A stretch of 64,000 nt of DNA from positions 26,040,001-26,104,000 of the forward strand of contig CM060734.1 of the NCBI GenBank assembly GCA_030704615.1. Direction: 5' to 3'. Under the pieces are notes generated by a model that saw only the letters and a program-made list of their open reading frames with translations, made no database searches and was not told the origin of the DNA. The DNA comes from Takakia lepidozioides. Taxonomy: Eukaryota; Plantae; Bryophyta. The position numbers and the translations under genes were made by a program. Within the stretch, counting starts at the first letter, position 1. Every line of letters begins with the position of its first letter. This document shows, piece after piece, positions 8,977 to 63,400 of this stretch.

Positions 8977-11332
8977 TGTGCACCTAAGCATCGTGCCACA
9001 ACATACATTGCTGTCCAACCACACTTCATAGCATATAGTCCTAGAAAGCCACGCCACAATCGCCCCCCTAGTTGATGATTAGGTCCCTCTAACACCGGAT
9101 AGCTGGCAGGTATCCACCCCAATAAGATCATCGCTTGGTCTTCAATCGCACAAGTCCCAACACCTGAAGTCGATAGATCAAGAGGCCGGGTGCAAACGTA
9201 GCCCCTCTGAGCTATGTCCGTGACAGTTACGACCTCCACTGCGACCTCTGCCTCCTCTACCTCTCTGGACTACATTGCCTCGTCCTCGGTCACCATTGTT
9301 CCCTTGGAACTGGCCTGGCCATAGCTCAGGATGCAAGTCATATCAATGGGCCTCTTCATGCCCATACTTGCCACAATGCCCACACTGTAGTTGTGTAGGT
9401 TGTGCCTGTGCCGGGCCTTTGCCTCTCTCCGGGCAATCTCTCTTAACATGGGGCCCCCCACAATCCCAACATGTCACACCCGACTGTTGTTGGCCTGAGA
9501 ATGAAAGAAGTGACCTCTGCAATTGAGATCCTCTCTGTCCTTCCCTTGGCTTCGCCTAAGCCCCCTTGTTGCCTTGAGCACGTTGGGGTAGTGGTTGTTG
9601 TTGGCTAGGAGCCCCACTTCGTTGTGTCTCCTTACAAACCCCACCATGACCACTCGCTCCTCCCCCATATTGAGCTCTATCCGCTCTACCAGCAAACACA
9701 CGTTTGCTAAGGTGGGTTGGGCCACTTGTAGGAGAGTTGCATCCCGCACCCTTCTCCTCAGCTCTTTGTCCAATATCCCATACCAGAATTGGAATGCTTG
9801 AGCTTCCGTAACCCCTTGGGTTACATTTATCAATCGCCTCATGCGCGTGTAAGCCTCCCTCAAACTCTTAGTAGGCTTGCGCTGGAACTCTTGCAAGCTC
9901 CGTAATTTCTCCGTCCTTATCCCTTGGTAGTTTCTCCTCAACTCCTCGAAGAACTCCACAACTGGGTTAAAGGCAGGCACGGGTGCTGGTGCTGCAGCAG
10001 GAGCTTGAGTGGATTTCCCAGCTCCATCTTTACTTGTCCCACTACTAGTGCTTGCAGTTGGGGATGTTGGTGTAGCTGTTGGTGTCACCGCCCTTGTGCC
10101 TATAGTGATGGAGACATAGTCAGGCGACCAATATTGTCGCCACTCCTCAATCTCCACCTCATTTCCCCGCCTAAACTCATGGTAGTCATCCATAGGCGGC
10201 CCCTCAAGGTGCTGAAACAGCCCCTTCCACGCCATAAAAGGCATAAACAGTTGTGGATTGCGCATCTGCTGCAAATCACACCAACTATCAAATTCCTGTA
10301 TGAAATCATCAAGCTCGATGGTGCCCACAGCTCCAGAGTACCGACGTGGCCCCTTAGTAGCTCCTTACACAACAATGGCACGGAAATGGCTTGCACCCTC
10401 GGCGAGTATCCTCCTGACTCCGAGTCTGAACCTTCCTCAGAAGACACTGAAGGTGAAGGTGGCCTAAACCCCACACCTTGTCTTGTATACCCACTAGTAT
10501 CGCTGGTGCTCGTACCGCCACTCTCCTCAGCAACTGGTGGTACCTCCGTGATGAAAACTCACACTCAAACCGACTATCAACTTGTCTCTAATCCCCCTTT
10601 CCACAAGGTAACCAGGTAGAGAACCTGTTGCGGCTTATAGTTTGGAATACTATGTTCATAACCTGCACCTGCATCCACCGCAGGCACTCCTATGGTCTGC
10701 TGGTCATCAACCCAACCTCACTATAAGAGAAACAATGATGGTCTGCTGTTCATCACCCCAGCCTCACCACCGACAACACGCTCTAGGATTGGTTGGCCAC
10801 AATATTTCCGGCACAACCACCTATAAAATTAAGCGCCCAAACCAAACTAACATGGTGCACAGTCAAGCATACATGTGTGGGAGGAGGATCCAAACACAGG
10901 AAAACTCAAACAACAACACCTCCCACACCTTAAATCAATCGATCTCCTTGCGGCTCCAATAAACCTGCAAGATGGCCAAGTCTCTATCCAAACTAGCTCT
11001 GCCTCCACTTACGGAAAAGCTTTGGCCTACAAGAATGATGGAAGACTATAGCTAAAGCAATATCTAACCCCAGAATGCTATCATCACATTACTCCCCCTA
11101 TCTTCACACTCACTCTTGCTCGAGCGCAATAGATAAGACTATCCTTAAAGAACCTCTCAAATAACTCTGAGAAGCCCTCAAATTATTGTCATGAACTTCT
11201 GAAATCTGCCCTCAATCAGCCCCTAACATAGACCCACCGAGGTTCAAGAAGTTCGCAAACTTGGACTCCAAACAGTCCACCAAAAGGCCCTAGGCCACCA
11301 CATTCTCCCCACTGAGTGTAAGGCACATGACA
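8977..11332 (-). mobile_element. Family A Gypsy copy A1, internally deleted (putative 5' LTR 11332-10583, gag remnant 10549-9270, short PPT/LTR-like end)
   Basis: Gag is near-identical to copies A2 and A3 (ELDDFIQEFDSWCDLQQMRNPQLF). Putative LTR termini TGTCA...GACA. agggggg tract followed by TG...CA at 9070-8977. No pol and no TSD found. Confidence 0.8.
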
Positions 11333-31434: not shown

Positions 31435-32640
31435 GGGGCTGTGACGGGCTGTGTCAGGCCGTGCCTGAGGCCTGTGGGGCTGTGAGGGGCTGTGATAGGC
31501 TGTGCCTGTGGCCTTTGGGGCTGTGACGGGCTGTGACAGGCTGTGCCCAGTGGCCTGTGGGGCTGTGGCGGGCTGTGCCCTGTGGCCTGTGGGGCTGTGA
31601 CGGGCTGTGCGGGGCTGTGATAGGCTGTGCCCAATGGCCTGTGGGGCTGTGACGGGCTATGCAGGGCTGTGACAGGCTGTGCCCAGTGGCCTGTGGGGCT
31701 GTGAGGGGCTGTGACAGGCCGTGCTTGAGGCCTTTGGGGCTGTGAGGGGCTGTGAGGGGCTGTGAGGGCTGTGACATGCCGTGCCTGAGGCCTTTGGGGC
31801 TGTGAGGGGCTGTGACATGCCGTGCCTGAGGCCTTTGGGGCTGTGACGGGCTGTGAGGGGCTGTGTCAGGCCGTGCCTGAGGCCTGTGGGGCTGTGACGG
31901 GCTGTGAGGGGCTGTGACAGGTTGTGCCAGTGGCCTGTGGGGCTGTGACGGGCTGTGCGGGGCTCTGACAGGCTGTGCCCAGTGGCCTGTGAGGCTGTGA
32001 CGGGCTGTGAGGGGCTGTGACAAGCTGTGCCCATGGCCTTTGGGGCTGTGATGGGCTGTGAGGGGCTGTGACAGGCCGTGCCTGAGGCCTTTGAGGCTGT
32101 GACGGGCTGTGAGGGGCTGTGACAGGCCGTGCCTGAGGCCTTTGGGGCTGTGATGGGCTGTGAGGGGCTGTGTCAGGCCGTGCCTAAGGCCTTTGGGGCT
32201 GTGAGGGGCTGTGTCGGGCTGCGCCGGTGGCCTTCGGGGCTGTGAGGGCCTGTGACGGGCTACGCCGGTGGCCTTGGGGGCTGTGATGGGCTGTGAGGGG
32301 CTGTGACAGGCCGTGCCTGAGGCCTTTGGGGCTGTGACGGGCTGTGAGGGGCTGTGTCAGGCCGTGCCTGAGGCCTGTGGGGCTGTGACGGGCTGTGAGG
32401 GGCTGTGATAGGCTGTGCCTAGTGGCCTGAGGCCTTTGGGGCTGTGACGGGCTGTGAGGGGCTGTGTCAGGCCGTGCCTCAGGCCTTTGGGGCTGTGACG
32501 GGCTGTGCGGGGCTGTGACAGGTTGTGTGGGGCTGTGACAGGCTGTGGCGAGCTGTGACGGGCTATGAGGGGCTGTGACAGGCTGTGCCCAGTGGCCTGT
32601 GGGACTGTGATGGCTGTGACCAGTGAGCTGTGTGGGCCTG
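31435..32640. repeat. G-rich minisatellite, 10-bp unit GGGCTGTGA(C/G), with higher-order cassettes
   Basis: Directly visible reiteration of ggggctgtga / gacgggctgt / caggccgtgcctgaggcc. Confidence 0.97.
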
Positions 32641-35600
32641 TGCTGGTCTGTGGTGGCCCGTGTTGACCTGTGGACGGCCTGTGCTGACTCGTGGAGGCAC
32701 TGGTGGACTGCCTAAGGACTGGCATGTGGGCTGGAAGGCCGAATTTTGAAGCTCGTGGAGGGCGGTTTGAGGAGTATCTTCATGATATTCCCATGGTCAT
32801 GCAAGTGAGGGAAGAGAGGAGAGGAAGAGTGTTGGGATGAGGGCATGCTGGGGTTAGGCATTGCTTTAGCTTCTCTTCCTCGTAGTTTCCACCCTCTCAT
32901 TAGGCCAAGACCTTTCCGTAGGTGGAGGCATGAGTCAGTCCGGGTTTGGGCTGGGGTGTCCTTGTAGGAGCAACACCGTGGAGTTGTTTTTGGTGTGGGG
33001 GAGTTGTCGTTCTGATTTCTTGTGTTTGGATCCCCTCCATACCTGCATGCTTGACTGTGCGCCATGCTAGTTTTGTGTGGGCGCTTGTTTTTATAGGTGA
33101 TTGGTCCGGATTTGATCACCGGCCAGTCCTAGAGCATGCTGTCGATGGTGAGGTTGGGGTGATGACCAGCCAGACCATCATTGTTTCTCCTGTGGTGAGG
33201 TTGGAGGTGATGACCAGCCAACCATAGGAGTGCTTGCGGTGGATGCAGGTACAGGTGTAGGCTATGTTAGGAACTTAGTATTCCAAACCATAAGCCGCAA
33301 CAGGTTCTCTACCCGGTTACCTTGTGGAGAGGGGGTTAGGGACATGTTCATGACCGGTTGAGTGTCAACACGGAGGTGCCACTAGTTGCTGGGGACAGTG
33401 CCGGTTTGAGCACTAGCGATACTAGTGGGTACACGAGACGAGGTGTGCGGTTTAGGCCACCTCCACCTCCTGTGTCTTCCACGGAAGGTTCTAATTCGGA
33501 TTGTGAATCAGGAGGACTCATACCGGCGGTGCAAGTTGTTTCTTTGCCATTGTTGTGGGACACAATGGAGGAGATGTATGGAGCTACCAAGGGGCCACGA
33601 AGGTACTCTGGGCGGTGGACACCATCGAGTTGGATGATTTTATCCAAGAGTTTGATAGTTGGTGTGATTTGCAGCAAATGCGCAATCCACAACTATTTAC
33701 GCCGTTCATGGCATGGAAAGGGCTGTTTCAGCACCTTGAGGGGCCGCCTATGGATGATTACCATGAGTTCAGGCGGGGGCATGAGGTTGAGATCGAGGAG
33801 TGGAGGATGTACTGGTCACCCGACTATGTCTCCATCACTAGGGGCACTAGAGCCACGAGGGCAGTGGCTACACCTGCCGCTGCACCGGCAGCTTCAGCAA
33901 GTAGCAGTGGAACTAGTGGGACTGGTGGTACAGTAGCTACGACGTCCACCCAAGCCACTACCGCACCAGCACTAGCACCCGTGCCTGCCTTCAACCCTGT
34001 TGTGGAGTTCTTTGAAGAGTTGAGAGGGAACTACCAAGGGGTGAGGACAGAGAAGTTGCGGAGCTTGCAAGAGTTCCAACGGAAGCCGACCGAGAGCTTG
34101 AGGGAGGCTTTCACTCGCATGAGGCGCTTGATAAATGTAACCCAAGGGGTTACGGAAGCTCAGGCAGTCCAATTATGGTATGGGATATTGAACAAGGAGC
34201 TGAGGAGAAGGGTGCGGGATGCAACTCTCCTGCAAGCGGCCCAACCCACCTTAGCAAATGTGTTTTTGCTGGCAGAGCGGATAGAGCTCAACATGGTGGA
34301 GGAACGAGTGGTCATGGTGGGATTTGCTAAGGAGACACCACGGGGTAGTGGTGCTCCTAGCCAACCACTACCTCAACGTGCTCAAGGCAACAAGGGGGCT
34401 CAGGTGAAGCTCAGGGAAGGGCAGAGAGGACCTCAGATGCAGGGGTCTCTCCCTTCATTTGCTGGCCAACAACGGGCGGAGGTGGTGTGCTGGACATGTG
34501 GAGGACCCCATGTCAAGAAGGATTGCCCAGAGGGAGGCAAAGGGTCGGCACATGCACAGCCTGCACAGTTGCAGTGTGGGCATTGTGGCAAGCACGGGCA
34601 TAGAGAGGCCCAGTGTTATGGTTTGCATCCTGAGTTGCGCCCAGGCCAGTTCCAAGGGAACAATGGTGGCCGGGGGCGAGGTGGAGCAGCCCAGAGAGGA
34701 CGAGGTGGCCAGCCACGAGGTGCAGGCCAAGGGCAAGCTCAACATGGCCAAGGACACGGAGGTCAGGGTGTTGACCAAGGCATGGCCAACCGGCTTCAGC
34801 AGCTAGAGCAGAGGCTCGCTGCCATGGCTACAGCTCAGGTGGTACCGGCTCTAAGGCCGGATGGTCCACCTCCTGCTCCTGAGGGAGAAGATATGAGAGG
34901 CATGGGATTCATGTGTGGAGCAGCACTACCACTAGTGCAGGTGGAGTCTGCTGCAGCCGTGACTCGAGGAGTAGCACGAGTTCCTGAGCCACGAGGTGCA
35001 GAGGTGGAGTTGGATCCACAACGTGGGGAGGCAAGCCGTCAGGCTAGGCTTCCTCAGTCATTCACATTGGCGGAGACAGTGTCGACGCCATCCATGGCAC
35101 CTAGTTCTCGCCCGACGGTTATCGAGGCGGAGGTTACTATGCCATTGGGGAGAGCTACACGGGTAGCACCACTACCTAGTGTTGCCAAGGCTGCGGCAGC
35201 TAGTGTGCTGCTAGGAGCGGCCACATCTGTGTGCCAGGCTCCATTGTTCTCGGCTACCATGATTGCGACGCCGGGGGTAAAACCAGCTGAGGTGTTCAGG
35301 CTGGCAGCTACACTCTGTGAGAGTGGGGAGGTTACTTCATCTTCTGCGGAGATAGTGGGAGGTGTAGTGCCGGAGGGATCCTCGGATTTGAGGGTCAAGA
35401 CTGCCACGGCGGTGCCATGGCAAGCTGCAGCTGCCAGGTTGATGGAGCTGCCAGCTAGGCCAGCCATTGAGCGCGCCATGGTGACACCTGGAGTTGTCAT
35501 GTTAGACAACCAGGATGGCATTTTCTGTTTGAGTGGACCGGCAGGCAAGAGGTACCGGCCACTACGGGTCTTGTTGGACTCGGGAGCTCAGCCATTGATG

Positions 35601-36141
35601 TTGGGCAGAGCTGCTATTGCAGGCTTGGGCCTCACGGAGGCGGATATGGAGCCTTGTCCTTTCCATATACAGACGTCTCTGGGAGGATCGGAGCAGGCTC
35701 GGGGCATGACACGGCGTGAGTTGGCTATCAGACTACGGCAGATGGCTCAGTGATGCGAGCCAAGGCCATTGTGACAGACGCAGTCTCATACGATGTCCTG
35801 GTTGGTGGGGCAGTGTTGTACCCCATGGGCTTCACCCTGGATTTTTGGGATGAGTCAGCTTCCTATAGGCCTGCATGGCAGTCAGGGGAGGGCCGGCATG
35901 TGCAGCTCCTTGTGATGTTCATAGGAGGAGTTGCGGTTTCCCAGCGAGGCAAGATGCCGACACTAGCAGCATTCACAGCGGCAGTGAGTTGGCCTAGAGA
36001 ATTGCTTGAGGGCAATGCTCTCATCAGAGGATGTATCACCTCCGGAGAGCAGGATGACATGTATGGTATGGCGGAGTTGCTACCATGGTTGCTCAGACTC
36101 CATTGTGGGGCACGAGCAAGGATTTGCAGCGGATGCTGATC

Positions 36142-41473: not shown

Positions 41474-41717
41474 CTTGCCTTTTGGATGGGCGTCACCCGA
41501 TTTCGGCACTGCGCAAACACACGATTAACCCAATTTACCTCTCCCACTTTTGTAAGCTAGCATGCATTCTACACACTAGCCACCACACCATGCATCACCA
41601 TTCCAAACACAATAGGATGCACAATATTTGGAACCCATTTCCTTTATAACAAATTTTTGTACAATACAAGTTTTTGCAATCGGATTCCTGAGCTAGCTAA
41701 ACCGGGCTAAGCATGCA

Positions 41718-41728
41718 TTTCCTCCCCC
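41718..41728 (-). promoter_or_regulatory. Polypurine tract of B1
   Basis: GGGGGAGGAAA immediately before the TG of the 3' LTR. Confidence 0.85.
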
Positions 41729-41779
41729 ACGCTTCAAGGTTGATGTCCCCATCAACGCTTCTTCCCCGCTTTTGAGGTC

Positions 41780-41945
41780 GCCCTTCAAAAGCTGCAACCG
41801 CCTCGGATGCGTTTCCCATTTCTGAGGCACGCACCCAAGATGCTTCCACATGATGATAGCCCTTCCATTTGACGAGATACTCCGTTTCTCGGTTCCTGAA
41901 CCTCCTCGACTTAAGTATTGCCTCCACCTCGTACTCAGGTTCATT
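41780..41945 (-). other. Integrase C-terminal chromodomain of B1
   Basis: EYEVEAILKSRRFRNRETEYLVKWKGYHHVEASW, with aromatic-cage Y/W/Y retained. Confidence 0.92.
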
Positions 41946-44900: not shown

Positions 44901-46363
44901 GTTGAAGAGGAACATCAATCGCCAACCTTGTCGCCAACTGTGGTTCTCCTTTGGCAGAACGCACCTCAATAGAGGCCGCCACGTCACTTGTCGGGAGTCC
45001 CAGCTTTTGTGCCGTTGCCGGTGTCATGAAGGAGTGCGACGCTCCTGTGTCCACCAACAACGACACATTAGTTCCGGATATTATCCCATCCACGAACAAT
45101 AACTAACTCCCTTTTCGTAAGGCGCCAGTTTCCTGATACAACTCACAAGAAAATTTGCCTACCTTGCAAGTCCTGGCGACCACCGCTTCCACCAAGCGAC
45201 TGATGGTATCTTCCGACGGCTCCGTGGTCGCCCGAGTCATGTTCAATTGCCGGGGCTTCGTGCACTTCTTGGCCATGTGCCCGGGCTCCCCGCAATTGAA
45301 ACACACTCCATCAAAGGTCGCCTTCTGTCCGCCATAAGCCGCTCCACCCGCTTTTCCTTTCGGAGCACCGGGTGCCGCCTTGACGTGTGAAGGCCCTCCC
45401 TTTGATTTCCACGTGCCATTTTTGCCGCGTGGCCTATCCCACTTCTTTTCCGGTCGGAAGGAGTCACCTTCCCGCCGAATCTTCTTGTGGTTCAGCTCCG
45501 TACGGCCTTGTCTTTCACCCCTAGGGACATCCGAGAAACATTCAGCCCTCTCAATTGCCTCGTTCAAAGTCTTGGGTGGCTTCTCCTCCAACTTCCGCCT
45601 GGCCCATGGGGCCAGTCCCGCCACAAAGTTGAAGACCATTTCTGGTTCTGCCATGTCCGCGACTTCGAGCAACAGCACATTGAAAGCCTGGACATACCCC
45701 GAATGTCATCTGTTTGCTTCAAATTCCTCATCTTGTCCCGGGCGAGCCAGGACGCGTTGAGGGGCACAAACTGTCTCTTCATCAATTCCTTGAACCCACT
45801 TCAGTTCAAGGTTTCCGGGCTTGGACCTCGGTCGTGAAGGCATTTCTGCCACCATTGTTGAGCATAGCCCCTCAAATAGGTGGGAGCCACTTCCACCCGA
45901 TCCTCATCACTCAACTTGGCCGCCCGGAAGTACTGCTCTAGCTCCAGGAGCCAGGTGTTGAGTGCCTTCCGATTTCGGACGCCCTCGAAGGTGCCGGGTT
46001 CCTTAGGCTTCACCTTAAACTTTGCCTTAGTGGAAATGGCATTAGCCGCCTTCAACACTTCTTTCAACGTCCCGCCAAACTGCGCCAACAACCCTTCCCA
46101 AAAGGCTGCCGGCATGGGAGGCATCTCTTGGTTTGTCGGAGCTCTCAAGGATTCCTCGGGCTCCGACTCCTCGGATTCCTCCCGCTCTTGAGCGGCCTCG
46201 TTTTCGGAAACATGCATCGCTTCCTCAAATGGCCGCCTCGGTGACACGTCGCCCCCATCGGGCTCACCGGGATCATCATCTTTTGGGCCGTTCCGCTTTC
46301 GCTTCGGCTTGCCCGACCCCATGATGAGGCCAATCCCAAGGACGATCGCGTACTGAACTCTAA

Positions 46364-46375
46364 GCTCTGATACCA
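46364..46375 (-). promoter_or_regulatory. Primer binding site (tRNA-iMet) of B1
   Basis: TGGTATCAGAGC, 2 nt after LTR end ...GTGACA. Confidence 0.95.
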
Positions 46376-47095
46376 AGTGTCACGCACCTCACTTCGGTAA
46401 ACTCCCCTTCAAGTCATAGTTACTCGCTTTGATGCGCGCGCCTATCTCCCAACCTGGCCGCCGGGCCAACTTGGAGCTTCGGCTGCTCACCGGGACATAA
46501 CAGTCCCCCCTTCGCTTCCCTCTAAAACCCTCCACCTAATTGGGACTAGGAGAATTCCCTTTGGTAGATGGCAGTCCGGAATAGCTCCCCACTCTTTGGT
46601 CGCTTTCCGGCTCGCTCGCTTACTCACTAATTTTTGGTCACCAACGGGCTTGCACCGTTCTCGGGGTTACTACTCCCTATATATACTTCTGTAGCTGTCC
46701 GCGGGGGTTTCACAACCAGCCATGCCATTTTATGGCGAACCACCACGAAGACCCTCGATTCCCGGTGGTGAGTCGCGGTGAGTCTTGGCCCGCTCACCAC
46801 GGCCCTTATGGACCGTGATGAGTCCCAAAACTCCCCACGACTCCCACCACGAGGTCTCTGCCCCCTTGGTGAGTCCTATGCCACCCCCACTAAGTCCCAC
46901 TAAGCTACTGTGGAGCCACCCCCACCGCAACCCGGTGTGCGGGGCTCCACCTAGTGAGCGCCTCCGCCTCCTTGAGTGCTTTTGGGCACTCAAGGGTGCT
47001 TCAGCCCCCGTACCTATCGCTGCTACTGCCCCCACCACAGGGGCAGCCCCTCTTGTGTCCCGACCTCCCTGCCCTCAAGGCAAAGGGCCGCGACA

Positions 47096-49063
47096 TAGGG
47101 AGTAGTAACCCCGAGAACGGTGCAAGCCCGTTGGTGACCAAAAACTAGTGAGTAAGCGTGCGAGGCGGAAAGCGACCAAGGTGTGGGGAGCTGTTCCGAA
47201 CTGCCAACAACCAAAGGGAATTTCCACTAGGCCCAAAGTGAGCGAGGGTCTTGTGGAGGAGCAAAGGGGGACCATTATGTCCCGGTGAGCAACCGAAGCT
47301 CCGAGTTGGCCCGGCGGCCAGTTTGGGAGTTAGACGCGCGCATCAAAGCGAGTAACTATGACTTGAAGGGGAGCTTACCGAAGTGAGGTGCGCGGCACTT
47401 GGTATCAGAGCTTAAAGTTGAGTATGTGATCATCCTTGAGATCGGCCTCACCATGGGGTCGGGCAAGACAAAGCGAAGGCGGAACGGCCCAAAAGACAAT
47501 GATCCCGGTGAGCCCGGTGGGGGCAACGTGTCACCGAAGCGGCAAATGGAAGAGGCGATTTATGCTTTTGAAAGCGCGACCACTCAAGAACGGGAGGAAT
47601 TTGGGGAGTCGGAGCCCAAGGACTTTCTAGAGGCTCCGCCAGACCAACAGATGCCTCCCATGCCAGCAGCCTTTTGGAAAGGGTTGTTGGCGCAGTTTGG
47701 CGGGACGTTGAAAGACGTGATGAGGGCGGCTAATGCCACTTCCACTAAGGCGAAGTTTAAGGTAAAGCCTAAGGAACCCGACACCTTCGAGGGCATCCGA
47801 AATCGGAAGGCACTCAACACCTGGCTCTTGGAGCTAGAGCAGTACTTCCGGGCGGCCAAGTTGAGTGATGAGGATCGGGTGGAAGTGGCTCCCACCTATT
47901 TGAGGGGCTATGCTCAACAATGGTGGCAGAAACGCCTTCATGACCAAGGTCCAAACCCAGAAACCTTGAGCTAGAGTGGGTTCAAGGAACTTATGAAAAG
48001 ACAGTTCGTGCCCCTCAACGCGTCCTGGCTCGCCCGAGACAAGATGAGGAATTTGAAGCAAACGGATGACATTCGGGGATATGTTCAGGCTTTCAATGTG
48101 TTGTTGCTCAAAGTCGCGGATATGGCAGAACCAGAAATGGTCTTCAACTTTGTGGCGGGACTGGCCCCATGGGCTAGGCGAAAGTTGGAGGAGAAGCCAC
48201 CTAAGACTTTGAACTAGGCAATTCAAAGGGCTGAATGTTTCTCGGATGTCCCTAGGGGCGAAAGACAAGGCCGTACGGAGCTGAACCACAATAAGACCCG
48301 GCGGGAGGGTGACTCCTTCCGACCGGAAAAGAAGTGGGATAGGCCACGCGGCGACAATGGCACATGGAAATCGAAGGGAGGGCCTTCACACGTCAAGGCG
48401 GCACCCGGTGCTCCGAAAGGAAAATCAGGTGCGGCGGCTTATGGTGGACAGAAGGCGACCTTCGATGGAGTGTGCTTTAATTGCGGGGAGCCCGGGCACA
48501 TGGCCAAGAAGTGCGCGAAACCCCGACAATTGAACCTGACTCGGGTGTCCGAAGATTCCATCAGCCGCTTGGTGGAGGCGGTGGTCGCCAAGACTTGCAA
48601 GGTAGGCAACTACTCTTGTGAGTTGTATCAGGAGACTGGCCCCTTGCGTAAAGGGAGTCAGTTAATGTTCGTGAGTGGGATAATTTTTGGAACTAACATG
48701 TCGTTGTTGGTGGACACATGAGCGTCGCACTCCTTCATGACACCGGCAACGGCACAGAAGCTGGGGCTCCCGACAAGTGATGTGGGGGCCTCTATTGAAG
48801 TGTGTTCTGCCAAAGGAGAACCACAACTGGCGACGAGGTTGGCGTTTGATGTTCCTCTTCAGTTGGGGAGTTGGGAGGGACGTGAGAACTTCACCATTTG
48901 CGAGATCGATGGAGTGGATCTCATTTTGAGGATGACCTTTTTGAGCAAATCCGGAGCGGTCATAGATGGCCGCAAGAGGATAGTCATGTTACCATGTGGG
49001 AATGGTGGCGAAGTTTTACGGGTGTCGGAAACACCCAACCGAGTGGGAGGACAATAAACCTGC
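47096..49063 (+). mobile_element. Chromovirus B2, 5' part (partial LTR 47096-47397, PBS 47400-47411, degenerate gag-PR), interrupted by A3
   Basis: TGGTATCAGAGC PBS. Gag and PR highly similar to B1 in the opposite orientation. In-frame stops. Confidence 0.93.
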
Positions 49064-51400: not shown

Positions 51401-53330
51401 GCTGTGGCCTCCGAACTGCGCAAGTACTTGTCTCTGATCTCTGGGTGTCGTCAATGGTGTCTCCTTGCTGATTTTGATCTCTATTAAGAGAGTGTATATC
51501 AAGTGCGCAGGGGACTCGTCTCTCGAGGGTTCACTGGGAAGAATCGCTTCACGACCTCCATCGTCACCACGGTTTGTGGTAGAAGACGGTTGGGATTCCA
51601 AAGCATGGTGAGCTGTTGAACTCAAATGAAATGGAGGGGAACAGCACGCACGTGGCCAGGGAACCTAGGATGCCATATAGAACTTAGGGAACCGGGAACC
51701 AGTTACCAGATATTGTGAGGGTGTAACTTTGAATTTTTAAACTTGAAAACCTTAATAATAAAAAAAAAAAAAAACCCCTTTTTAATCTAATTTGAATGAT
51801 TTGGAGCCAAATTCATCATATCTTTGTCAAATGGACTCTGTTTGACCCAGTTTTTGGGGGATAGCTGCAGAAAGGGGAAATCTACCTATCTAAACTTGGT
51901 TTCTGTTTTGGGGACTCTGCTAAAAATCTATGGAATTTTTAGAGTGTGAGTGTGCCATGAAAGATCCACAATCCTGTCTCTAGAACCTGTGCTGGTCTAT
52001 ATGAGAGACAAATTGGTGGATGTACTCCTTGCGTGGCTGGGGGAAATGAGGACGTAATTGAAGGGCAGGTCTCTTCTCTTAGTCTGTGCACACAAGGGGA
52101 AGGATTTATGTTTCCGAAGGAACTCAGACTGATTTGAGTGGAGAATAGTTGGACGAGTTGATTGCATACTGGGAGTCAGGCATTAGCAGTAGACAACAGA
52201 CTGCTGTAGTTGGCATTGAGGGCCTCAATATCGCCTTGGACAGTCAGAACTCTGTTGGAGCCAACAGTTCTGCAGCTGTAGATGAAATACCAAAGTGGGT
52301 GAAAGCTAGGCTTGGAACACAGCCAAAGACAGCCCCGGGGACCAAGGTGTTCAGTCACAAGGCCGTGGTGTACTGGAGCAGAGGAGCAGGAGCTACACAA
52401 GTTTGTGCAATCAGACATGGTTGCAGCCGGATACGCTCTGCACAGGGCAACCACGAGCGGGGGTTCATCAGCAATGACATGTTTGTTGTGCGTGAATGAG
52501 ATGCAGTCATTCGCAATGAAGACACCCGCAACCGTCTCAAAGCTTTCGAGTTGAGAGACTATCAGACCCTACCTTTGTTTTCTTTAGTGTTCAGTGAGCG
52601 GGAGATATGGGAGTATTGCTTTGTCTCTACCTGGCAGAAAGAGGAGGAGGGTTGGTTAGAGCGAGCTACTATAGCTTGGGACAAGGTTAGTGGCAGGTTT
52701 CTGGACATAGATATACCTCCTACACCTTACCATCACGCAGAGCGAGGCACTTTGAGAGAAGTCTGGAAGTTGATAGCATAGATCAGGATTAGATCTTGCT
52801 TGGGCGGGCTTCTATTCTTCCCCTCCATCTCTGTACTATTTTCATTACCTTGTACTCGTAGTTGCCAAAGCCTCTCTTGGTGGAGGCCAGTCAGTCCGGG
52901 GTTTTGGGCTGGGATATTCTGCAGGATCAGCATTGCAGCTGGATTTTGGTGTGGGGGTGTTGATGTTTTGATTTCTTGTGTTTGGATCCCCCCCAACACC
53001 TGCATGCTTGACTGTGCGCCATGTTGGTTTTGTGTGGGCGCTTGCTTTCATAGGGATTAGGCCGGATTTGATCACCGGTCAATCCTAGAGTATGCTGTCG
53101 GTGGTGAGGCTGGAGTGATGACCAGCAAGACCACCAGTGTTTCTTCTATGGTGAGGCTGGGTTGATGACCAGCCAACCATAGGAGTTCTTGCGGTGGATG
53201 CAGGTGCAGGTGCCCTGAGCCATTGGGATATGACCCTTAGACTGCAACAGGTGCCCACCCGTGTCACTATTAGATTAGTACTAGAGCCTTATAGTGTCAC
53301 CTGGAGGAGGTGCACATTGTGAGTGTCATT

Positions 53331-56300
53331 ACGGAGTTACCCAAGGGTTTTGAGGGGAGTACGGCTACAGGCAGTAACAGTGAGAGTGGGTTCACAAGAC
53401 GAGGTATTCGGTTCAGACCACCTTCACCGCCACCCTCAATTACTGTAGAGTCAGACACAACTCGGAGGCTTCATCAACAGGTGTGCACTTTCATTCGCCA
53501 TTGTTGTGGGACGACATGGAGGAGATGTATGGAGCTACCAAGGGGCCTCGTAGGTACTCTAGAGCTATGGGCACAATCGAGTTGGATGACTTTATCCAGG
53601 AGTTCGACAGCTGGTGTGATTTGCAGCAGATGCGCAATCCACAGCTATTCACCCCATTCATGGCGTGGAAGGGACTGTTCCAGCATTTGGAAGGCCCGCC
53701 TATGGACGATTACCACGAGTTCAGGCGAGGACATGAAGCAGAGATTGAGGAGTGGAGGATGTATTGGTCACCTGACTACGTCTCCATTACTCGAGGCATG
53801 ACGCGACCAGTAGCTGCATCAGTACCAATAGCTCCCACTGCCAGCACTAGTAGTGGAGCAAGTAGTGCTGGTACTTCTGTAGGTGCTACCAGTTCAAAAG
53901 GTGCTACTACTCCTCCTGCCACTACTACAACACATGTGCCTAGATTCAACCCGGTGGTGGAGTTCTTCCAGGAGTTGCGGAGGAACTACCAAGGTGTACG
54001 GACAGAGAAGCTGCGAAGTTTGCAAGACTTCCAGCGCAAACCCAATGAGAGCCTGCGAGAGGCGTACACTCGTATGAGGCGCTTGATAAGTGTGACCCAA
54101 GGGGTTACTGAAGCTCAGGCAATCCAGTTTTGGTATGGAATTCTGGACAAGAAGCTCAAGAGAAGGGTGCGAGATGCAACCTTGTTACAAGCAGCCCAAC
54201 CCACATTAGCAGATGTGTTTCTGCTGGCTGAGCGGATTGAGCTCAACATGGTGGAGGAGCGAGTTGTCACCATTGGATTTGGCAAGGACATGCCTGCACG
54301 AGGCGTAGCTGCCAGCCCACAGGCACAAGGTACTGCCCAGCAGCGTGGTCAGGGGGGCAAGGTTTCCCAACCCAAGTTCCATGGAGCTTACAGGGGACCT
54401 CAGGTGCAGAGGCCCGTGGCATCTTTTGCAGGCCAACAGCAACCAGGGGTGATATGTTGGACATGTGGAGGACCCCATGTCAAGAGAGATTGCCCAGAGA
54501 GTGGCAAAAGGCCGGCACAAGCACAGCCTGCACAGTTGCAGTGTGGGCATTGCGGCAAGTGTGGGCATGGAGATGCCCAATGTTATGACTTGCATCCTGA
54601 GTTGCGCCCAGGCCAGTTCCAAGGGAATAATGGTGGCCGGGGGCGAGGTGGACCAGCCCAAAGAGGACGAGGTGGTCGAGCACGAGGTGCAGGCCAAGGG
54701 CAAGCTCCACATGGCCAAGGACGCGGAGGTCAGGGTGTTGACCAAGGCATGGCCAATCGGCTTCAGCAGCTAGAGCAAAGGCTCGCTGCCATGGCTATAG
54801 CTCAGGCGGTACCGGCTCCCAGGCGGGATGGTCCACCTCTTGCTCCTGACGGAGGAGATATGGGAGGCATGGGATTCATGTGCGGAGCAGCACTACCACT
54901 AGAGCAGGTGGAGTCTGCTGCAGCCGTGACTCAAGGAGCAGCACGAGTTCCTGAGCCACGAGGTGCAGAGGTGGAGTTGGATCCACAACGTGGGGAGGCA
55001 AGCCGTCAGACAAGGCTGCCTCAGTCGTTCACCTTGGCGGAGACAGTGTCAACGCCATCCATGGCACCTAGTTCTCGCCCGACTGTTACCGAGGCGGAGG
55101 TTACTATGCCATTGGGGAGAGCTACACGTGCAGCACTGACACCTGCTACCAAGGCTAGTGCAGCCGGTGTGTTGTTGGGGGCAGCCACCTCTGTGTGTCA
55201 AGCCCCACTGTTCTCGGCAACCATGATTGCGACGCCGGGAGTGAGACCAGCTGCAGTGTTCAGACTAGCAGCAACACTCTGTGAGAGTGGGGATGTCACT
55301 TCATCTTCTGCGGAATTAGTGGAAGGTGTAGTGGCAGAGGGATCCTCGGATTTGAGGGTCAAGACTGCCACGGCAGCGCCTTGGCAAGCTGCAGCTGCCA
55401 GATTGATGGAGCTGCCAGCTAGGCCAGCCTTTGAGCGCGCCATGGTGACACCTGGAGTTGTCTTGTTAGACAACCAGGGAGGCATTTTCACTTTGAGTGG
55501 ACCGGCAGGCAAGAAGTACCGGCCACTGCGGGTCTTGTTGGACTCGGGAGCTCAGCCACTGATGTTGGGCAGAGCTGCTATTGCAGGTTTGGGCCTCATG
55601 GAGGCGGATATGGAGCCTTGCCCTTTCCAGATACAGACATCTCTGGGAGGATCAGAGCAGGCTCGGGGCATGACACGGCATCAGTTGGCCATTAGACTGC
55701 AGCCGGATCACCCTATCGATGGCTCAGTAATACGAGCCAAGGCCATTGTGACAGACGCAGTCTCTTACGATGTCCTCGTTGGTGGGGCAGTGTTATACCC
55801 TATGGGCTTCACCCTGGACTTTTGGGAGGAGTCAGCATCCTACAGGCCTGGATGGCAGTCAGGCGATGGTCGCCGTGCACAGCTCCCTGTGACATTCATT
55901 GGGGGTATAGCGGCTGCCCAGCGGGGCAAGATGCCAACACTAGCCGCCTTTACAGCTGCAGTTAGTTGGCCTGGAGAGTTGCTGGAAGGCAATGCCCATG
56001 CAGAGGATGTGCCACCTCCAGCAGAACAGGATGACATGCATGGTATGGCGGAGTTGCCTGCCATGGTTGCTCACACTCCATTGTGGGGTACGAGCAAGGA
56101 TTTGCAGCAGGTTGCTGATCGACGGGTGCAACAAGCCTGGGTAGAGGCTTTTGTTCCGTTAGGAGAGGAGGAGAGTGCGGGTATTGCACCAGGACCACCT
56201 CAGTTGTCACCATTGGATACCACACCTATTGTGTGGCAGTATCCGGATGAAGGCATTTGCCTTCTGGACTTGTTTGGCGGGATCAGCACCGGATTGGCTG

Positions 56301-59300
56301 CTGTGCTACAGGCAAGTGTACGAGTTCGACGTTACCTGTATGTGGAGAGGGATGAGACTGCACGACGCGTCTCACTGCGCCATGTTGCTCAGTTGGTATA
56401 ACAATACCCTGACTTGTTGCCAGTGTCTGCAGTTCGTGGATTCCAACAAGCCTTGCCAGCAGACATTTCTTTGCTGGGGGCGCAGGATTTAGAGCAGGTT
56501 GGCTCCATTGATCTGGTAATGGCAGGTTGGCCCTGCCAAGGGCATTCATCAGCCGGGCATGGCAATGGATTGCGAGACTCGAGGACGGGTATGTTTTGGG
56601 AGATGGTGCGGATTTTGCGCTGCTTGCAGCTTCGTCAAGCTGTATCTCCAGCATACATCTTGGAGAATGTACCACTGATGGGTGATTCTCGGGCCAGGGT
56701 GATGGCCAGTGTGCATCAAGTCCGGTCGTGGCTTGGGTCAGCAGTGTTGCTGGATGCAGCTGCAGTGGGGTCACGGGCTCATCGTCCACGGCTTTGGTGG
56801 ACTAACTTGATGCCACCCGCACTACTCAAGCGTGCATTTGATGGGGTGCAGCGGCCAGCACACCTTACCGTGGATGGCATTTTGGACACAGGGAGGCAGT
56901 CTCAACGTGTGAGACACGATGACCGTTCGCCTTTGGCAGTGGTCAACAGGGTGGGTCAACCACGAGCAGCATTACCTACACTGCTCAGCTTCCCAGGATC
57001 CCATGCTTTTCGGGATGGTGGACCTGGCCTCCTGTAGGATGCTCAGTTGCAACAGTTAGTGGAGCCTAATGCCGACGAGCGAGAGCGGGCTATGGGGTTT
57101 TCCACTGGGACCACGGCGGTGCCTTCTCTTTCTGAGGCATCACGTCGGCAGGTGTTGGGGCAAGCAATGGATCTCAATTGCTTGACCTGGATTATCAGCT
57201 TGGCTATGGCTGAGCAACGTAGAGTGCGGAGCGCACTTCCCTGGACGGTCTCTCTGCCTACCGAGACGGTACAGGCAGCGAGTGGGGGCGAGCCGGTGAG
57301 GACCACGGGGTGTAGACATCCATGGCACACGTGGGAGGTGCTCGAGGTTCAGAGGGAGTTGGCAGCCAAAGCAGCTGTGATGGATGAGGTTGGGGATTCT
57401 TCTCGGGATGAGGAGGTTCTCAATGATGAGATGATGGGGCAGGATGAGGCATTGTCATTGACTGAGCAAGAAAGAAGTACTGCTCAAGAGGTTGCAGCAT
57501 AGCAACCACGGGACGCGTCCTCTACCTCTAAGCCCACTGGACTTAAGGTTGCAGTCACGGAGGACAATTGGGAGCCTGACATTGGACCCATTGTCACCGG
57601 AGGAGAGAGACGACGTATATGGCGGTTCATGAGGGCTTACAGGAATTGCTTTGCCTTCAGTTTGAAGGACTTGGGAGCACTGAAGGGTCAAGAGATCCAT
57701 ATTGAGTTGGCCACTGACACGCCAATCTTTCGGAGACCCTATAGATACAGTGACATGGAGAGGTCTTTGATTCAGATGAGGACTCAAGATCTCTGGGAGG
57801 CAGGTTTGGTGGAGCTCTCTGGTGGAGAGTATGCTTCAGCCACAGTGATGCCAGCTAAGAAGGATGTCTATGGCAATTGGACGGAGAGACGTATGTGCGG
57901 TGATTACCGGCCTGTAAATCGTCAGACCAAGTCCGATAGGTATGCCATGCCAACACCAGAGGAGATCTTTGATGCCATTGGGCATTCCAAGGTCTTTAGC
58001 ACGTTGGATTTACGATCCGGATATCACCAGTTGCCGATCAAGGAGGCGGATAAGCAAAAGACGGCATTCTGGGGGATCAATGAGCACGGGAAGGATTGCC
58101 TATACCAGTGGCGGTTCTTACCATTTGGGCTTAAAAACGCTCCCGCTGAGTTTCAAAGAGTCATGGATAGGATTCTAGCAGGGGTGGAGTTTGCTCGGTG
58201 CTACATAGATGACATCATCATCTTTAGTGCTACGGTGGAGGAGCATGAGAGACACCTTCAGGGGGTATTTGAGCGCTTAAGGACGCACGGATTGAAGTTA
58301 CATCCGGGCAAGTGCAAGTTTTTCCACAACCAGATTGAGTATCTGGGTCACATGATATATCCTGGAGGATTGGGGGTACAACAGACTAAGGTAGAGTCCA
58401 TAGCACAGGTTCCACGCCCCACGGACGTGAGCCGAGTTTGAGCTTTCATGGGGTTAGCAAACTATTATAGACGGTTTGTTAAGGGATTCAGTGCCATTGC
58501 AAAGGCTCTAACCAAGCTGACCAAGGTGGACCAGGAGTGGCAATGGGAAGATGAGCAAGAACAAGCTTTTCAAGAGCTCAAGGCGAGGTTGACCTCGGCG
58601 CCCATCTTGAGACGACCTATCAGGGGGCATCCTTTTCAGCTGCATACAGATTGGAGCATGCTGGGGCTTGGAGCGGTGCTCACACAGGTGGATGATGAGG
58701 GAAGAGAGTTCGTAGTGGCTTATGCTAGCCGCTCAAACAATGCTGCAGAGTCTAAGTATAGCTCATATGAGGGAGAATGCTTAGCTGCAGTGTGGGCCGT
58801 GGCACACTTCAGGTGCTATCTATACGGCAATCTCTTCACCTTTGTCACGGATCACCAACCACTCAAGTGGTTGATGGAGTCAGACAAGCTTACGGGGAAG
58901 CTTGCACGGTGGGCACTCATCCTTCAAGAGTATGACTTTCAGGTGGTGCATCGACCGGGTTTGGTCAATCGCAATGCAGATGGGTTGAGTCGCAATCCAT
59001 GCACGAGCCAACAGGATGACACTGGAGCTCGGTGGCATGGTGAGACGGACGAGGAGATGGTGCCTGGATGGCATGCATCTGCATTTCTGTGTATCTTGGC
59101 AACGGAAGGCCAGGTTGGACCTGCAACAGGGATGACTGTAGATCAAGTGTCTGAGGACCCTGAGGCCAGCAATGAGCAAGGTAGCGCCAAAGATATACAT
59201 GAGGATTCAGTTGTGTTGGACTACCTCCGCACTGGAGACACGGCAGCCACTGTGACTGCCAAGGAGAGGGATCGGATCCTACAACGAGCCAAGAGGTTCA

Positions 59301-60457
59301 GGTGGGAGGGGACACACCTGCTCCGAGTGTGGGAGGATGGTCGAGTGAGGATTGTGCCTCACCCAACACAGCGGGCACGGTTAGTGCGCCATGCCCATGA
59401 GGAGTTGGGGCATTTTGGGGTGCGACGCACTCATAGTCTACTGCAGGGGCAGTATTGGTGGCGTGGTATGCACACAGAGGTGCAACAATTTGTGGCTAGG
59501 TGCATGGTGTGTGACAGGGTGCGTGCTTCATTCAACGCCCCTACTCCACAATTGCACCCTCTTCCGATCATGGGATTGGGCTACAGGTGGAGTCTTGACT
59601 TCGCAGGGCCGTTGCCACTGACCATGCGCCACAACAAGTACGTGTTGGTGATGGTGGAGCACTTCTCCAAGTGGATTGAATTGGTTCCATTGCCTGATAA
59701 GGCTAGTGAGGGAGCTGCGTATGCATTCCTGGATTGTGTGCTTAGCCGATTTGGTGCTCCAGCTGAGGTACTCGCGGACCAAGGGAGAGAGTTCTTGGGG
59801 GAGTTTCAGGCTTTGTGTGACAAGGCCTTGATAGACCACCGCACCACTTCTCGGGATCATCCTGAGGCCGATGGCTTGGCAGAGAGAGTTGTTCAGACAG
59901 TAAAGAGGGGTTTGCGCAAGTATGGCTTGCAGAAGGGACACCTAGGAGATTGGGACCTTCAGTTACCCTGGTTAGCCATGGGCTACAGGTTCAGCAAGCA
60001 AGCATCACTTGCCTCCTTCTCACCATACTTTCTTCTCTTTGGCCGAGAGCCGGATTTGCCTACATCCATTCGTAGAGAAGCTGCTACAGTTCTTAACCTT
60101 GACGATCCGGACGTGTGGGCACGTGCATGTGAGCAGCGTGCAGAGTTGTTCAAGAGAGTCATGCCCATGGCTTTCGAGAACCTTGCCATTGCACAACACC
60201 GTGATACGTTGAGGTATGCTACCATACGTGGTGGGGGCTATCGTCCTGGGGTTCGGAGATTCAACCCTGGTGACTATGTCTATCTGTAGCAGACTGCTCC
60301 TACGACCCTGGATGTGACTGCAGGACGTGTTATTTTGAGGGTTCGAGAGGTCTTGCCCTCAGGCGTCTTGGTCTTGGAGGGTCGGGATGGCATAACTTGG
60401 AAGGACCATGTGCATAATTGTGCGCCATGTCACCTTCCGAATGTCGATGGCTGTGTG
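53331..60457 (+). pseudogene. Gag-PR-DNMT-RT-RNaseH-IN polyprotein, single frame from 53483 with five premature stops
   Basis: ORFs 53483, 56414, 57047, 57629 and 58448 share one frame. Knuckles CWTCGGPHVKRDC and CGHCGKCGHGDAQC; DSG at 55541; YIDD at 58202; LHTDWS/TDHQ; HAHEELGH..CMVC; LDFAG/ADQG/AERV. Confidence 0.95.
56255..57200 (+). other. C5 DNA cytosine methyltransferase domain, DNMT3-like, motifs I-X in linear order
   Basis: Motif I LDLFGGIST, II YVERD, III ADI, IV GWPCQG (Cys at 56534), VI ILENV (56663), VIII HRPRLWWTN (56783), IX ERERAMGF, X RRQVLGQAMD. Confidence 0.93.
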
Positions 60458-63400
60458 TCGATTACAGGGCTCTGAATAAGGTGACTATCAAAAACCGGGA
60501 TCGACAACCTCTTTGATCGGTTGGCAGGAGCAAATTATTTCAGCCGGATCGATTTGCGCTCAGGTTACCATCAAATCCGAGTGGCAGAAGGAGATGAGGA
60601 GAAGACCGCGTGCATGACAAGATATGGTTCATATGAGTTCTTGGTGATGCCTTTTGGGCTCACCAACGCACCCGCGACCTTTAGCATGCTAATGAACAGC
60701 CTTTTCCAGGAGTGGTTGGATGACTTTGTGATCGTGTACATTGACGACATCTTGGTGTACTCGAAAACAAAGGAAGAGCACCTGGAGCACCTCAAAAGGG
60801 TGTTCCAGAAATTGCGGGAAGGGAAGCTGTATGCCAAAGCTTCAAAGTGCGAATTCGGGGTCGCAAAAGTGGAGTTCCTAGGGCATGTGATTACACAGGA
60901 TGGGATCAAAATGGATGATAGAAAGGTGAGGGCGATCTTGGATTGGGAGCCTCCGACTTCGGTCCCAGGAGTGCGATCCTTCTTAGGACTCGCCTCCTAT
61001 TACTGAAAGTATGTGAGAAATTTTGCCAAGATCGCGGGGCCACTGTCAGACCTTCTGTGTAAGTCCAAGGTATGGGTATGGAACACCTTTTGTGGCCAAG
61101 CTTTTGCCGAGTTGAAGCAGCAGATGGCGGAAGCTCTAGTCCTGAAAATCCCGGAGTTCGACCGTCCATTTGAGATCCATACAGATGCGTCGGACTTCGC
61201 AATTGGGGGTGTGCTCATGCAGGATGGACGTCCAGTGGCTTACGAAAGTAAGAAACTGAATGAAGTGGAGCGACGGTGGCCTACGCATGAGAAAGAACCG
61301 CGACACTCTTGAAGAAAGAGTATTTCTGGCCCAAACTGAGGGAGGAGGCCGAGGAGTATGTCAAGACATGCACCACATGCCAACAAAACCGGAGCGAGTA
61401 CAAAAAGCAAGCGGGGCTGTTACAACCTTTGCCGATTCCAGAGGGGTCTTGGGAAAGTGTCTCGATGGATTTCATGACTGCTTTGCCGCTGTCAAAAGGA
61501 TTCGATGCAATCATGGTAGTGGTGGATAGGTTTAGTAAAATGGGTCATTTCATCCCCACCAAAGAGACGGCAACGGCGCAGGAGACGGGGCGACTTTACT
61601 TCGCCCATGTCTTCAAGCATCATGGACTCCCGAAGGATATTATCTCGGATCGCGATCCAAAGTTTACAAGTAAATTTTGGAGGGCACTTTGGAAGAAGAT
61701 GGGAACGAGGCTCAAGATGAGTACGGCCTTCCGACCTACAACGGACGGCCAAATGGAAAGAGTGAATTCCGTGGTGAAGCAGATCTTGCGGAATTATGTG
61801 TCGGCAGACCAGTCAGACTGGGTGGAGCACTTGGATGCGGCAGAGTTCTGTTATACAACAAAACACAAAACACTTCGCAATGGGAGTTTACCTTTTCATA
61901 TTGGTCTATGGAAAAGCACCTTGGTGCCGACAAGTTGGGCCGCCCAGGACGTTGAGGAACCGGCAGCAGCAGCGGTGCTGGAAGAACGAGAGCGTTTATT
62001 GGAGCTTACAAAGTACAACATTGCCAAAGCTAAGAAACGGTATGAACGGCAGGCGAATCGAAAGCGGAGGGAAGTTAAGTTTGAGGCAGGCACGGAGGTC
62101 TGGTTGAACATCAAGAATTTTTGACTACCTCCGGAAGTGAGTCCAAAGTTTGTACCTCTGTATGCGGGGCATTTTCGCATCCGGAAGGTTATGAATGAGG
62201 ATGTGTATAAATTGGAGCTGCCGGCAAACAGCAAGGTGCATCCGGTATTCCACGTTTCCCTTCTACCAACCACCCCCTGCCCTTCAGAGGTGTCATCTCC
62301 ACTTTCTTCTGCTGCAGGCTCAGTGACAGTCCGCGGAGATCGCGAATCTTTCTGCAAGACAACCTTTCATCCCCTACGGTTATTGTCATCTTAAAGAAAA
62401 CTTCATCGACTTGCGAGGGGTAGATGAATGGCTGCTCATTTCTTGCTGGTGAAATTGAAGAAAACAGGTCGTAGGCCTCCGTAATCCAATTCCAAGATCT
62501 CATCAATGACCCCCACATATTTCAAAGAGTCTATCATTGGATTGGAATCAGTTGAAACATTTATTTCTTGCTAAAAAATTGAACTCACCCCAAAATCAAA
62601 GCTTACATGCGAACATCCATCCCTGTATGATTTCCTGTAATGGTTTCCATGTGCCCTCATTGAGGGGTATGATTTCACATGCAACAACGGACGCAAACTC
62701 AGACGCCGAACGTCCATGTCCACATCCACCGTGTTCCTCACCTCATTGTCCACTGCCTCTTGTAACCGCTCCACAAAAAAGGGAAAGCGCGTCCGAATCG
62801 GCATCGAGTGTTGCGTCCGCCACCTGTTCTGTTGGATCATGAAAATGAACCTAAGTACGAGGTGGAGGCAGTGCTTAAGTCGAGGAGGTTCAAGAATCGA
62901 GAAACGGAGTATCTCGTGAAATGGAAGGGCTATCATTAAGTGGAGGCAACTTGGGTGCGTGCCTCAGACATCCGAGGCGGTTGCAGCTTTCGAAGGGCGA
63001 CCTCAGAAGCGGAAGAAGCGTTGATGGGGACATCAACCTTGGATCGTGGGGGAGGAAATGCATGCTTAGTCCGGCTTAGCTAGCTCAGGAATCCGATTGC
63101 AAAAACTTATGTTGTACAAATTTTGTTTATAAATGAAATGGTTTCCAAATGTTGTGCGTCCTATTTTGTTTGGAATGGTGATGCATGGTATGGTTGGCTA
63201 GTGTGTAGAATGCATGCTAGCTTACAAAAGTGGGAGAGGTAAATTGGATTAATCGTGTGTTTGCGCAGTGCCGAAATCGGGTGACTCCCATCCAAGGGGC
63301 AAGGAAACTTGCGCCTTCTTTGGGAGTTCATGTGCTAGTGCGCACCTGGCGCATGCGCGTACTATAACTACACTACCGAGGGGGGTGCCTTGTAGTGCGG

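Follow-up and report, generated by a model that had tools for sequence, protein, structure and literature searches.

A conserved, predicted readthrough stop separates a DNMT3-like methyltransferase from reverse transcriptase in a bryophyte Ty3/Gypsy retrotransposon family

Retroelements that carry a DNA methyltransferase (MTase) of their own include KnitGypsy-Dnmt3 of Klebsormidium nitens, whose Dnmt3 domain lies in the Pol open reading frame (ORF), the same ORF as reverse transcriptase (RT) and RNase H, and evolves at Ka/Ks below 0.2 (PMC5890265), as well as SymbioDIRS-Dnmt3, which methylated CG sites de novo in yeast (PMC5890265). A preprint on EpiLTRs and DAM-LTRs mentions 'streptophytes (Gypsy-DNMT3)' (bioRxiv 10.64898/2026.05.21.726589), and a 2019 review described methylase-encoding transposons as absent from 'land plants, such as tracheophytes' (PMC6338049). 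Here we analyze a 64,000-nucleotide stretch of genomic DNA from the bryophyte Takakia lepidozioides (assembly GCA_030704615.1, contig CM060734.1, positions 26,040,001 to 26,104,000; hereafter the window, with positions counted from its first letter), in which a Ty3/Gypsy element encodes a DNMT3-like cytosine (C5) MTase between protease and RT, and in whose family a conserved in-frame TAG followed by CARYYA divides the MTase from RT.

This family resembles KnitGypsy-Dnmt3 in being Gypsy and intronless, and in having a non-permuted Dnmt3-type domain with conserved catalytic residues under purifying selection. KnitGypsy-Dnmt3 has DIRS-like repeats and few copies, whereas the window family is abundant and belongs to a land plant (our trees contain no K. 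nitens sequence), and the single shared ORF of KnitGypsy-Dnmt3 is replaced here by the conserved TAG-CARYYA, with the MTase in ORF1 and continuous forms outside the clade. SymbioDIRS-Dnmt3, SymbioLINE-Dnmt, EpiLTRs and DAM-LTRs, likewise retroelement-borne MTases, differ in element class or MTase clade. Stop readthrough has itself been described in retroelements, namely MuLV (murine leukemia virus), Tca2 and Tj1/Tosmo (bioRxiv 2022.12.06.519325) and, as known to us through citation, SIRE1. The likeness to these and to viral systems is that a single in-frame stop governs how much structural relative to enzymatic product is made and that the hexamer fits the tobacco mosaic virus (TMV) consensus; the difference is that their stop lies at gag/pol or pol/env, whereas in the window family Gag, protease and an accessory enzyme all precede it and RT comes shortly after. 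In avian retroviral Gag-protease and betaretroviral nucleocapsid (NC)-dUTPase, an enzyme encoded ahead of the recoding site likewise enters particles in larger amounts than RT and integrase do; these cases rely on frameshifting, and their accessory enzymes are not DNA methyltransferases.

Gypsy-DNMT3 elements are already in print, and the new parts are the conserved predicted readthrough site and the presence of such elements in the model liverwort Marchantia. Open papers (figures and preprint supplements excluded) yielded no description of this bryophyte family, nor of a readthrough site that follows a methyltransferase; the main text of bioRxiv 10.64898/2026.05.21.726589 contains none of the terms 'readthrough', 'stop codon' and 'Marchantia', and its supplements, not covered by that statement, may list bryophyte Gypsy-DNMT3 loci.

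A stop conserved between methyltransferase and reverse transcriptase

Across 53516-60448 of the forward strand, Gag, protease, C5-MTase, RT, RNase H and integrase share a single frame register, with the Ty3/Gypsy order GAG-PR-RT-RH-INT, and a Pfam search of the translation (X placed at each stop) returned DNA_methylase, RVT_1, RT_RNaseH, Integrase_H2C2 and rve above cut-off. An earlier note on this DNA had placed these domains in one reading frame within 53331-60457; their order and register stand, but no AUG occurs in 53331-53515, which is in a different frame from 53516, and five in-frame stops interrupt what follows. Two of these (56399-56401 and 57035-57037) lie inside the MTase, one (57500-57502) between MTase and RT, one (58439-58441) after RT and one (60287-60289) in the integrase tail. 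The element ends at ~60448, joined at ~60449 to part of the RT of an unrelated Gypsy, and has neither a 3′ long terminal repeat (LTR) nor the PHD finger present in intact relatives; this copy is dead, 3′-truncated and cannot produce the MTase. Four of its five stops probably reflect decay, 57500 being the exception.

The contrast is visible in run X1, which yielded 27,101 contigs aligned over 2.3 kb of the element: as read from 40 of 151 rows, the majority differs from the window stop at 56399 (95%), 57035 (99.8%) and 58439 (89%), whereas across 57498-57508 no alternative letter occurs at 8% or more (1416 contigs, 20 of 20 rows), with the neighboring positions 57496, 57497, 57510 and 57520 varying at 8-17%. 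X1 is possibly the window's own source sample, and it shows other copies in that genome rather than an independent sighting; its summed contig depth, which is not a copy number, is similar for the two domains, at 0.5-1.5 million over the MTase and 0.9-1.3 million over RT. One contig each from X7 and X11, the latter another organism, spans the 57500 site unchanged; X9 and X11 shares are small, and X9, reaching just 21 letters 5′ of the stop, was not counted as bridging. A search for RNA runs containing the element listed none; X7 may be one, and we claim no expression from it. The stop at 60287 lies outside the X1 alignment, and L001 and L003, introduced below, are open there.

Nine metagenome loci were fetched, and three of them (L001, L002 and L003), with MTases 47-49% identical to that of the window, span the MTase-RT junction. 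Each carries an in-frame TAG followed by CARYYA (CAG-TTA, CAG-TTA and CAA-TCA, compared with CAA-CCA in the window), giving three different hexamers across four loci, every one within a consensus whose background frequency after codons of these frames is 0.3-0.4% and which is found after just one of the five window stops. The distance from TAG to the first conserved ORF2 motif is 18 codons at all four loci, although the linker can barely be aligned, and in L001 the TAG is the sole stop within 2417 codons.

A single in-frame stop, CARYYA and a conserved downstream frame, all found here, make up a TMV-type site. UAG with CARYYA is the TMV readthrough signal and is sufficient alone in plant reporters (PMC2754532, PMC2194720), where viral contexts of this kind gave 9-32% readthrough (PMC2754532). 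RNA folding 3′ of the stop was no better than in shuffled sequences at any of the four loci (z -0.78 to -0.99; pseudoknots not covered), so we propose no stimulatory hairpin, which fits the TMV type. Because the family shares the stop at 57500, even intact members carry two ORFs, and a conserved UAG-CARYYA between MTase and RT puts the MTase on the Gag side, dividing what had been taken for a single Gag-Pol frame. Judged from sequence, Gag-protease-MTase is likely the main product, with RT-RNase H-integrase as a readthrough extension.

The same division recurs among relatives. In an MTase tree of 127 rows, where elements of the RNase H-MTase-integrase type had been reduced to 10 rows by choice, the stop-bearing elements form a 51-row clade (Shimodaira-Hasegawa-like approximate likelihood ratio test, SH-aLRT, 99.3); counted by hand from the printed tree, 38 of its rows end 55-179 residues past the MTase, 7 break inside or just past it, and 6 run on. 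Further cluster members number 91, and among the 49 that include the MTase C-terminal end, 42 stop 50-180 residues past the MTase, 7 stop earlier and none reads into RT; some of these proteins may stop at contig ends, while C-termini recur letter for letter within groups. An RT-RNase H tree (76 rows) places the window, a Marchantia model, L001 and L003 together (support 97.5), with continuous-frame elements outside. Both trees are fast ones rooted at midpoint or on one outgroup.

Identity, conservation and spread of the methyltransferase

The window domain matches PF00145 (DNA_methylase; E 4.5e-11, 43.2 bits against a cut-off of 22) and carries motifs I, IV, VI, VIII, IX and X in linear DNMT3 order, with catalytic Cys, Glu and Arg present (LDLFGG at 56264, WPCQ at 56528, LENV at 56660, HRPRL at 56780, ERERAMGF at 57077 and LGQAM at 57155). 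The earlier note had called the key MTase motifs intact, and all of them are present, within a domain that two stops interrupt; its reading of a linear rather than DRM-like permuted order is borne out by the motif positions, and its DNMT3-like label by profile and fold. The best PDB relative of the single window sequence is DNMT3A (E 4.8e-10), and a 60-sequence profile scored DNMT3A at 1.2e-26, DRM2 at 1.7e-12 and HhaI at 1.5e-9, with DNMT1 absent among its 56 matches and tRNA methylases scoring far lower than DNMT3A. A structure model of the unbroken L001 MTase (pLDDT, predicted local distance difference test, 96.8) retrieved DNMT3B and DNMT3A as top Foldseek matches (E ~1e-20, TM, template modeling score, 0.71 by query). 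Sequence profile and modeled fold thus both place the MTase nearest to DNMT3, ahead of DRM, DNMT1, DNMT2 and bacterial enzymes; our MTase trees contain element-borne domains only, the searches having returned no host DNMT3 sequence. Plant DRM was separately considered and rejected, as a permuted order would be expected and a linear one is seen, and DRM2 aligns only with the N-terminal motifs.

Catalytic residues were counted in 175 rows, made up of the window, the three loci and the 171 of 198 matches that span 80% or more of the domain. The motif VI Glu is present in all 175, the catalytic Cys in 173 and the two motif VIII Arg in 174 and 173. The ratio of nonsynonymous to synonymous substitution rates (dN/dS) of the MTase is 0.105-0.136 in all three pairs among L001-L003, where it is 0.127 for protease, 0.04-0.20 for RT, 0.03 for integrase and 0.38-0.55 for the linker; in most comparisons of the window with these loci dS is saturated. 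These comparisons indicate that the MTase is under purifying selection in relatives, and in intact members it is quite probably catalytically active.

Retention of the domain as a DNA-binding or structural part of the particle, or as an RNA methylase with DNA methylation incidental, would suit a 1:1 ratio to Gag and the inactivity of the Klebsormidium domain in yeast (PMC5890265), but we consider it very unlikely given the near-invariant Cys, Glu and two Arg in 175 sequences, a fold resembling DNA-bound DNMT3 and the far lower scores of tRNA methylases. It is more improbable by far that all five stops are decay and the MTase a neutral passenger, or a chimeric insertion in the window copy: that copy is indeed dead, truncated and set amid other broken elements, but the conserved stop, the conserved catalytic residues and a dN/dS near 0.1 refute this reading. 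None of the outcomes that the earlier note named as refuting it was seen, as the domain matches a C5-MTase profile, is under purifying selection in relatives and is not confined to this copy, being carried by a family of 263 related clusters (50% identity, E up to 1e-30; best 150 listed).

Named matches among 55 comprise 18 from Marchantia polymorpha (derived from several assemblies, with some loci counted repeatedly), 2 from Calypogeia and 2 from Sphagnum, and cluster look-ups yield further members from all three; a separate search with 47 matches also returned Haematococcus and Closterium. Among the named minority of matches from this word-based sequence search there is no vascular-plant name, and Klebsormidium nitens does not appear among the named matches of the relative searches. 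Scans of viral contigs with RT and with the stop-plus-motif pattern gave no matches. One protein, P0462 (in the cluster of P0359), is labeled 'uncultured Leptolyngbya sp.', which probably reflects eukaryotic contamination of a metagenome bin.

We also observed a second layout, in which the same MTase follows RNase H and precedes integrase, and a PHD finger is present (proteins P0019-P0194). It accounts for 97 of the 171 matches used and forms one clade in the RT-RNase H tree (64 of 64, support 100), and its inclusion of Haematococcus lacustris extends the group to chlorophytes. In intact relatives of the window type, ORF2 (L001:5086-8229, L003:4664-7807) likewise closes with a PHD finger (PF00628 above cut-off).

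Predicted expression and action

On balance we lean toward a reading in which the TAG-CARYYA is a family-wide Gypsy feature read through by a minority of ribosomes, and a Gag-packaged DNMT3-like MTase methylates newly made cDNA. Most ribosomes would terminate at the TAG and yield Gag-protease-MTase, while a minority would continue into RT-RNase H-integrase-PHD, such that MTase output would be one-to-one with Gag and in excess of the copying enzymes. The MTase would then enter particles with Gag and be released by protease, steps that we consider likely. As the nearest double-stranded DNA in the particle, the cDNA would be a likely substrate; that it is the main one, with insertions arriving pre-methylated, is plausible but falls somewhat short of probable. 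In Marchantia, many ORF1 copies are uninterrupted.

Several points weigh against this reading. Six of the 51 clade rows continue past the stop region, all of them automatic gene models (five from Marchantia, two of these the same locus, and one from Sphagnum; one lacks RT). A single uninterrupted frame is found in many relatives, which means that the domain can be retained without expression at the level of Gag. Because L001 and L002 are 94% alike in the MTase, the loci amount to just two deep independent lineages, and the CAA-CCA of the window fits a degenerate consensus, whereas the viral sequences tested were CAA-UYA (PMC2754532). In L002 and L003 a Met lies 5 and 14 codons beyond the stop, respectively, which leaves reinitiation possible for those two. 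The Gypsy domain of Klebsormidium did not methylate yeast DNA, a result its authors deem inconclusive (PMC5890265); human DNMT3B also failed in that assay (PMC5890265). Finally, CpG observed/expected in the element is 0.45-0.60, compared with 0.83-0.88 in neighboring Gypsy copies, 0.34 in a long interspersed nuclear element (LINE) and 0.48-0.64 in host exons; as the element is not below the LINE or host exons, self-methylation is not shown. A set of 21 hand-picked copy-specific differences (8 CHH, 3 CHG, 3 CG and 7 other) is too small to interpret.

The run-on gene models and early Met codons also bear on whether the TAG is bypassed by other means, either by splicing (through a 3′ splice site or an Ogre-type intron), where a spliced RNA might skip the MTase and join gag/protease to RT, or by reinitiation. 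In Ogre elements, an intron divides GAG-PROT from RT-RH-INT (PMC6317226), a break that similarly falls after protease and before RT; TAG matches a YAG acceptor, L001-L003 are fairly rich in pyrimidines upstream, the six gene models omit the region, and the Met codons of L002 and L003 stand close to the stop. The Ogre spacer, however, is a spliced one of ~274 bp with no MTase (PMC6317226, in whose text 'methyltransferase', 'PHD' and 'Marchantia' do not occur), whereas here there is one in-frame stop and no spacer of ~270 bp. A splice site would have no need of CARYYA, and the gene models use differing junctions, with a spacer of 36-101 residues in five of them compared with 159 in the window. 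As for reinitiation, ORF2 is conserved from codon 19, whereas the first Met comes only at codon 43 in the window and at codon 117 in L001 (the latter already within the RT-proximal conserved region), which disfavors it there. We regard bypass by splicing or reinitiation as quite unlikely.

A different question is where the enzyme acts. With the same layout, an abundant MTase could act mainly in trans, on host chromatin, other elements or older copies, limiting the spread of the family. Gag-level MTase would exceed the needs of one cDNA, the integrase of intact relatives bears a PHD finger, a host-benefit model is raised in the Discussion of PMC5890265, and in moss, DNMT3b methylates heterochromatin de novo (PMC6453930). 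The domain nevertheless remains fused behind Gag-protease and co-travels with RT in both trees, no stand-alone domesticated copy was found, and we judge action mainly in trans to be unlikely, if less so than bypass of the stop.

Element layout, neighborhood and significance

The features of the element and of two further family copies in the window are collected in Table 1. Of the two CCHC knuckles reported for Gag in the earlier note, the second is canonical, whereas the first reads C-X2-C-X3-H-X4-C, short by one residue; the aspartic protease with DSG was found as described. The window protease has no Pfam match of its own and is 46% identical to those of L001 and L003; among relatives, Asp_protease_2 falls below cut-off in L001 (E 2e-4) and above it in P0017. 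No long terminal repeats were found in the window, nor in L001 or L003, whose contigs are possibly too short, and the window contains no tRNA gene with which a primer site might be compared. Between the second copy and the main copy, dN/dS is 0.25.

Table 1. Features of the methyltransferase-bearing element and of further family copies in the window
Feature	Position	Strand	Remarks
5′ non-coding region	52864..53330	+	shared by all three window copies; blastn matches between them begin at 52864 and 52948
AUG-less N-terminal gag extension from ACG (A-N-N-ACG-G)	53331..53515	+	out of frame with 53516 here
Gag	53516..54583	+	Retrotrans_gag E 0.0035, below cut-off; aligns with Marchantia Mp6g11220 from first Met
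Zinc knuckles	54455-54493 (X3 variant), 54542-54583 (canonical)	+	within Gag
Aspartic protease	55451..55873	+	DSG at 55541-55549
DNMT3-like C5-MTase	56255..57223	+	PF00145; interrupted by stops 56399-56401 and 57035-57037
Linker, 92 codons, poorly conserved	57224..57499	+	closes ORF1; dN/dS 0.38-0.55 among L001-L003; ORF1 of relatives ends comparably
TAG then CAA-CCA (CARYYA), predicted readthrough site ORF1/ORF2	57500..57508	+	family-conserved
Reverse transcriptase	57701..58378	+	RVT_1 E 8e-32; YIDD 58202-58213; copy-specific stop 58439-58441 downstream
RNase H	58541..58933	+	RT_RNaseH E 1.3e-34
Integrase (H2C2, D-D-E, GPY-like stretch)	59351..60448	+	stop 60287-60289; cut at ~60449 before PHD finger
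Second family copy (5′ region, gag, protease)	32904..36141	+	81% DNA identity over 3.3 kb; enters N gap before MTase
Third family copy, only 5′ region and gag	9278..10929	-	72.5% DNA identity

All three window copies have an AUG-less gag extension opening at ACG in the context A-N-N-ACG-G (53331-53515, 33366-33557 and ~10440-10555 on the reverse strand), and the extension runs continuously into gag in the second copy and in Marchantia P0351. Marchantia P0351 and P0398 retain a matching ITE stretch, near which L001-type elements begin with AUG; a non-AUG start of gag is possible from these sequences.

Copies of another, unrelated Gypsy with a chromodomain-like end (labeled by reading the sequence) occupy 60449-63300 and 41470-49030, and as the join at 60449 falls mid-RT without an LTR, it resembles a deletion or recombination. 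The window further holds a large inverted pair (44732-49032), a fragmented LINE-like element with endonuclease- and RT-like frames (23129-29626; labeled by reading, CpG observed/expected 0.34), a satellite array with a unit of ~120 bp (36700-41600 and 1-1200) and other arrays with units of 104 bp (6150-7470) and 10/41 bp (31400-32700). A class I histone deacetylase gene with introns lies at 12606-16420. Identity of its first exon is highest with liverworts, 97% for Riccia sorocarpa and 95% for Marchantia and Calypogeia, followed by 91% for Physcomitrium and at most 87% for flowering plants (best 120 of 218 matches); by this exon the host would likely be placed with the liverworts.

The role of retrotransposon-borne DNMTs has been unsettled since 2018, and elements of this kind are present in liverworts and peat mosses, among them numerous annotated loci of Marchantia polymorpha, a tractable model plant in which the question can be tested. 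The stop implies that the MTase would be expressed with Gag rather than with RT and integrase, which predicts an abundant, detectable protein, and it would explain the annotated Gag-protease-MTase 'genes' of ~1280-1450 residues that lack RT; such gene models may inflate host DNA methyltransferase counts in bryophyte annotations. More tentatively, and as a possibility that we hold to be somewhat doubtful, a leaky stop in this bryophyte Gypsy clade would provide MTase 1:1 with capsid and thus many enzymes per particle, so that cDNA would be methylated before integration, and such elements might constitute an unrecognized source of de novo methylation in their hosts.

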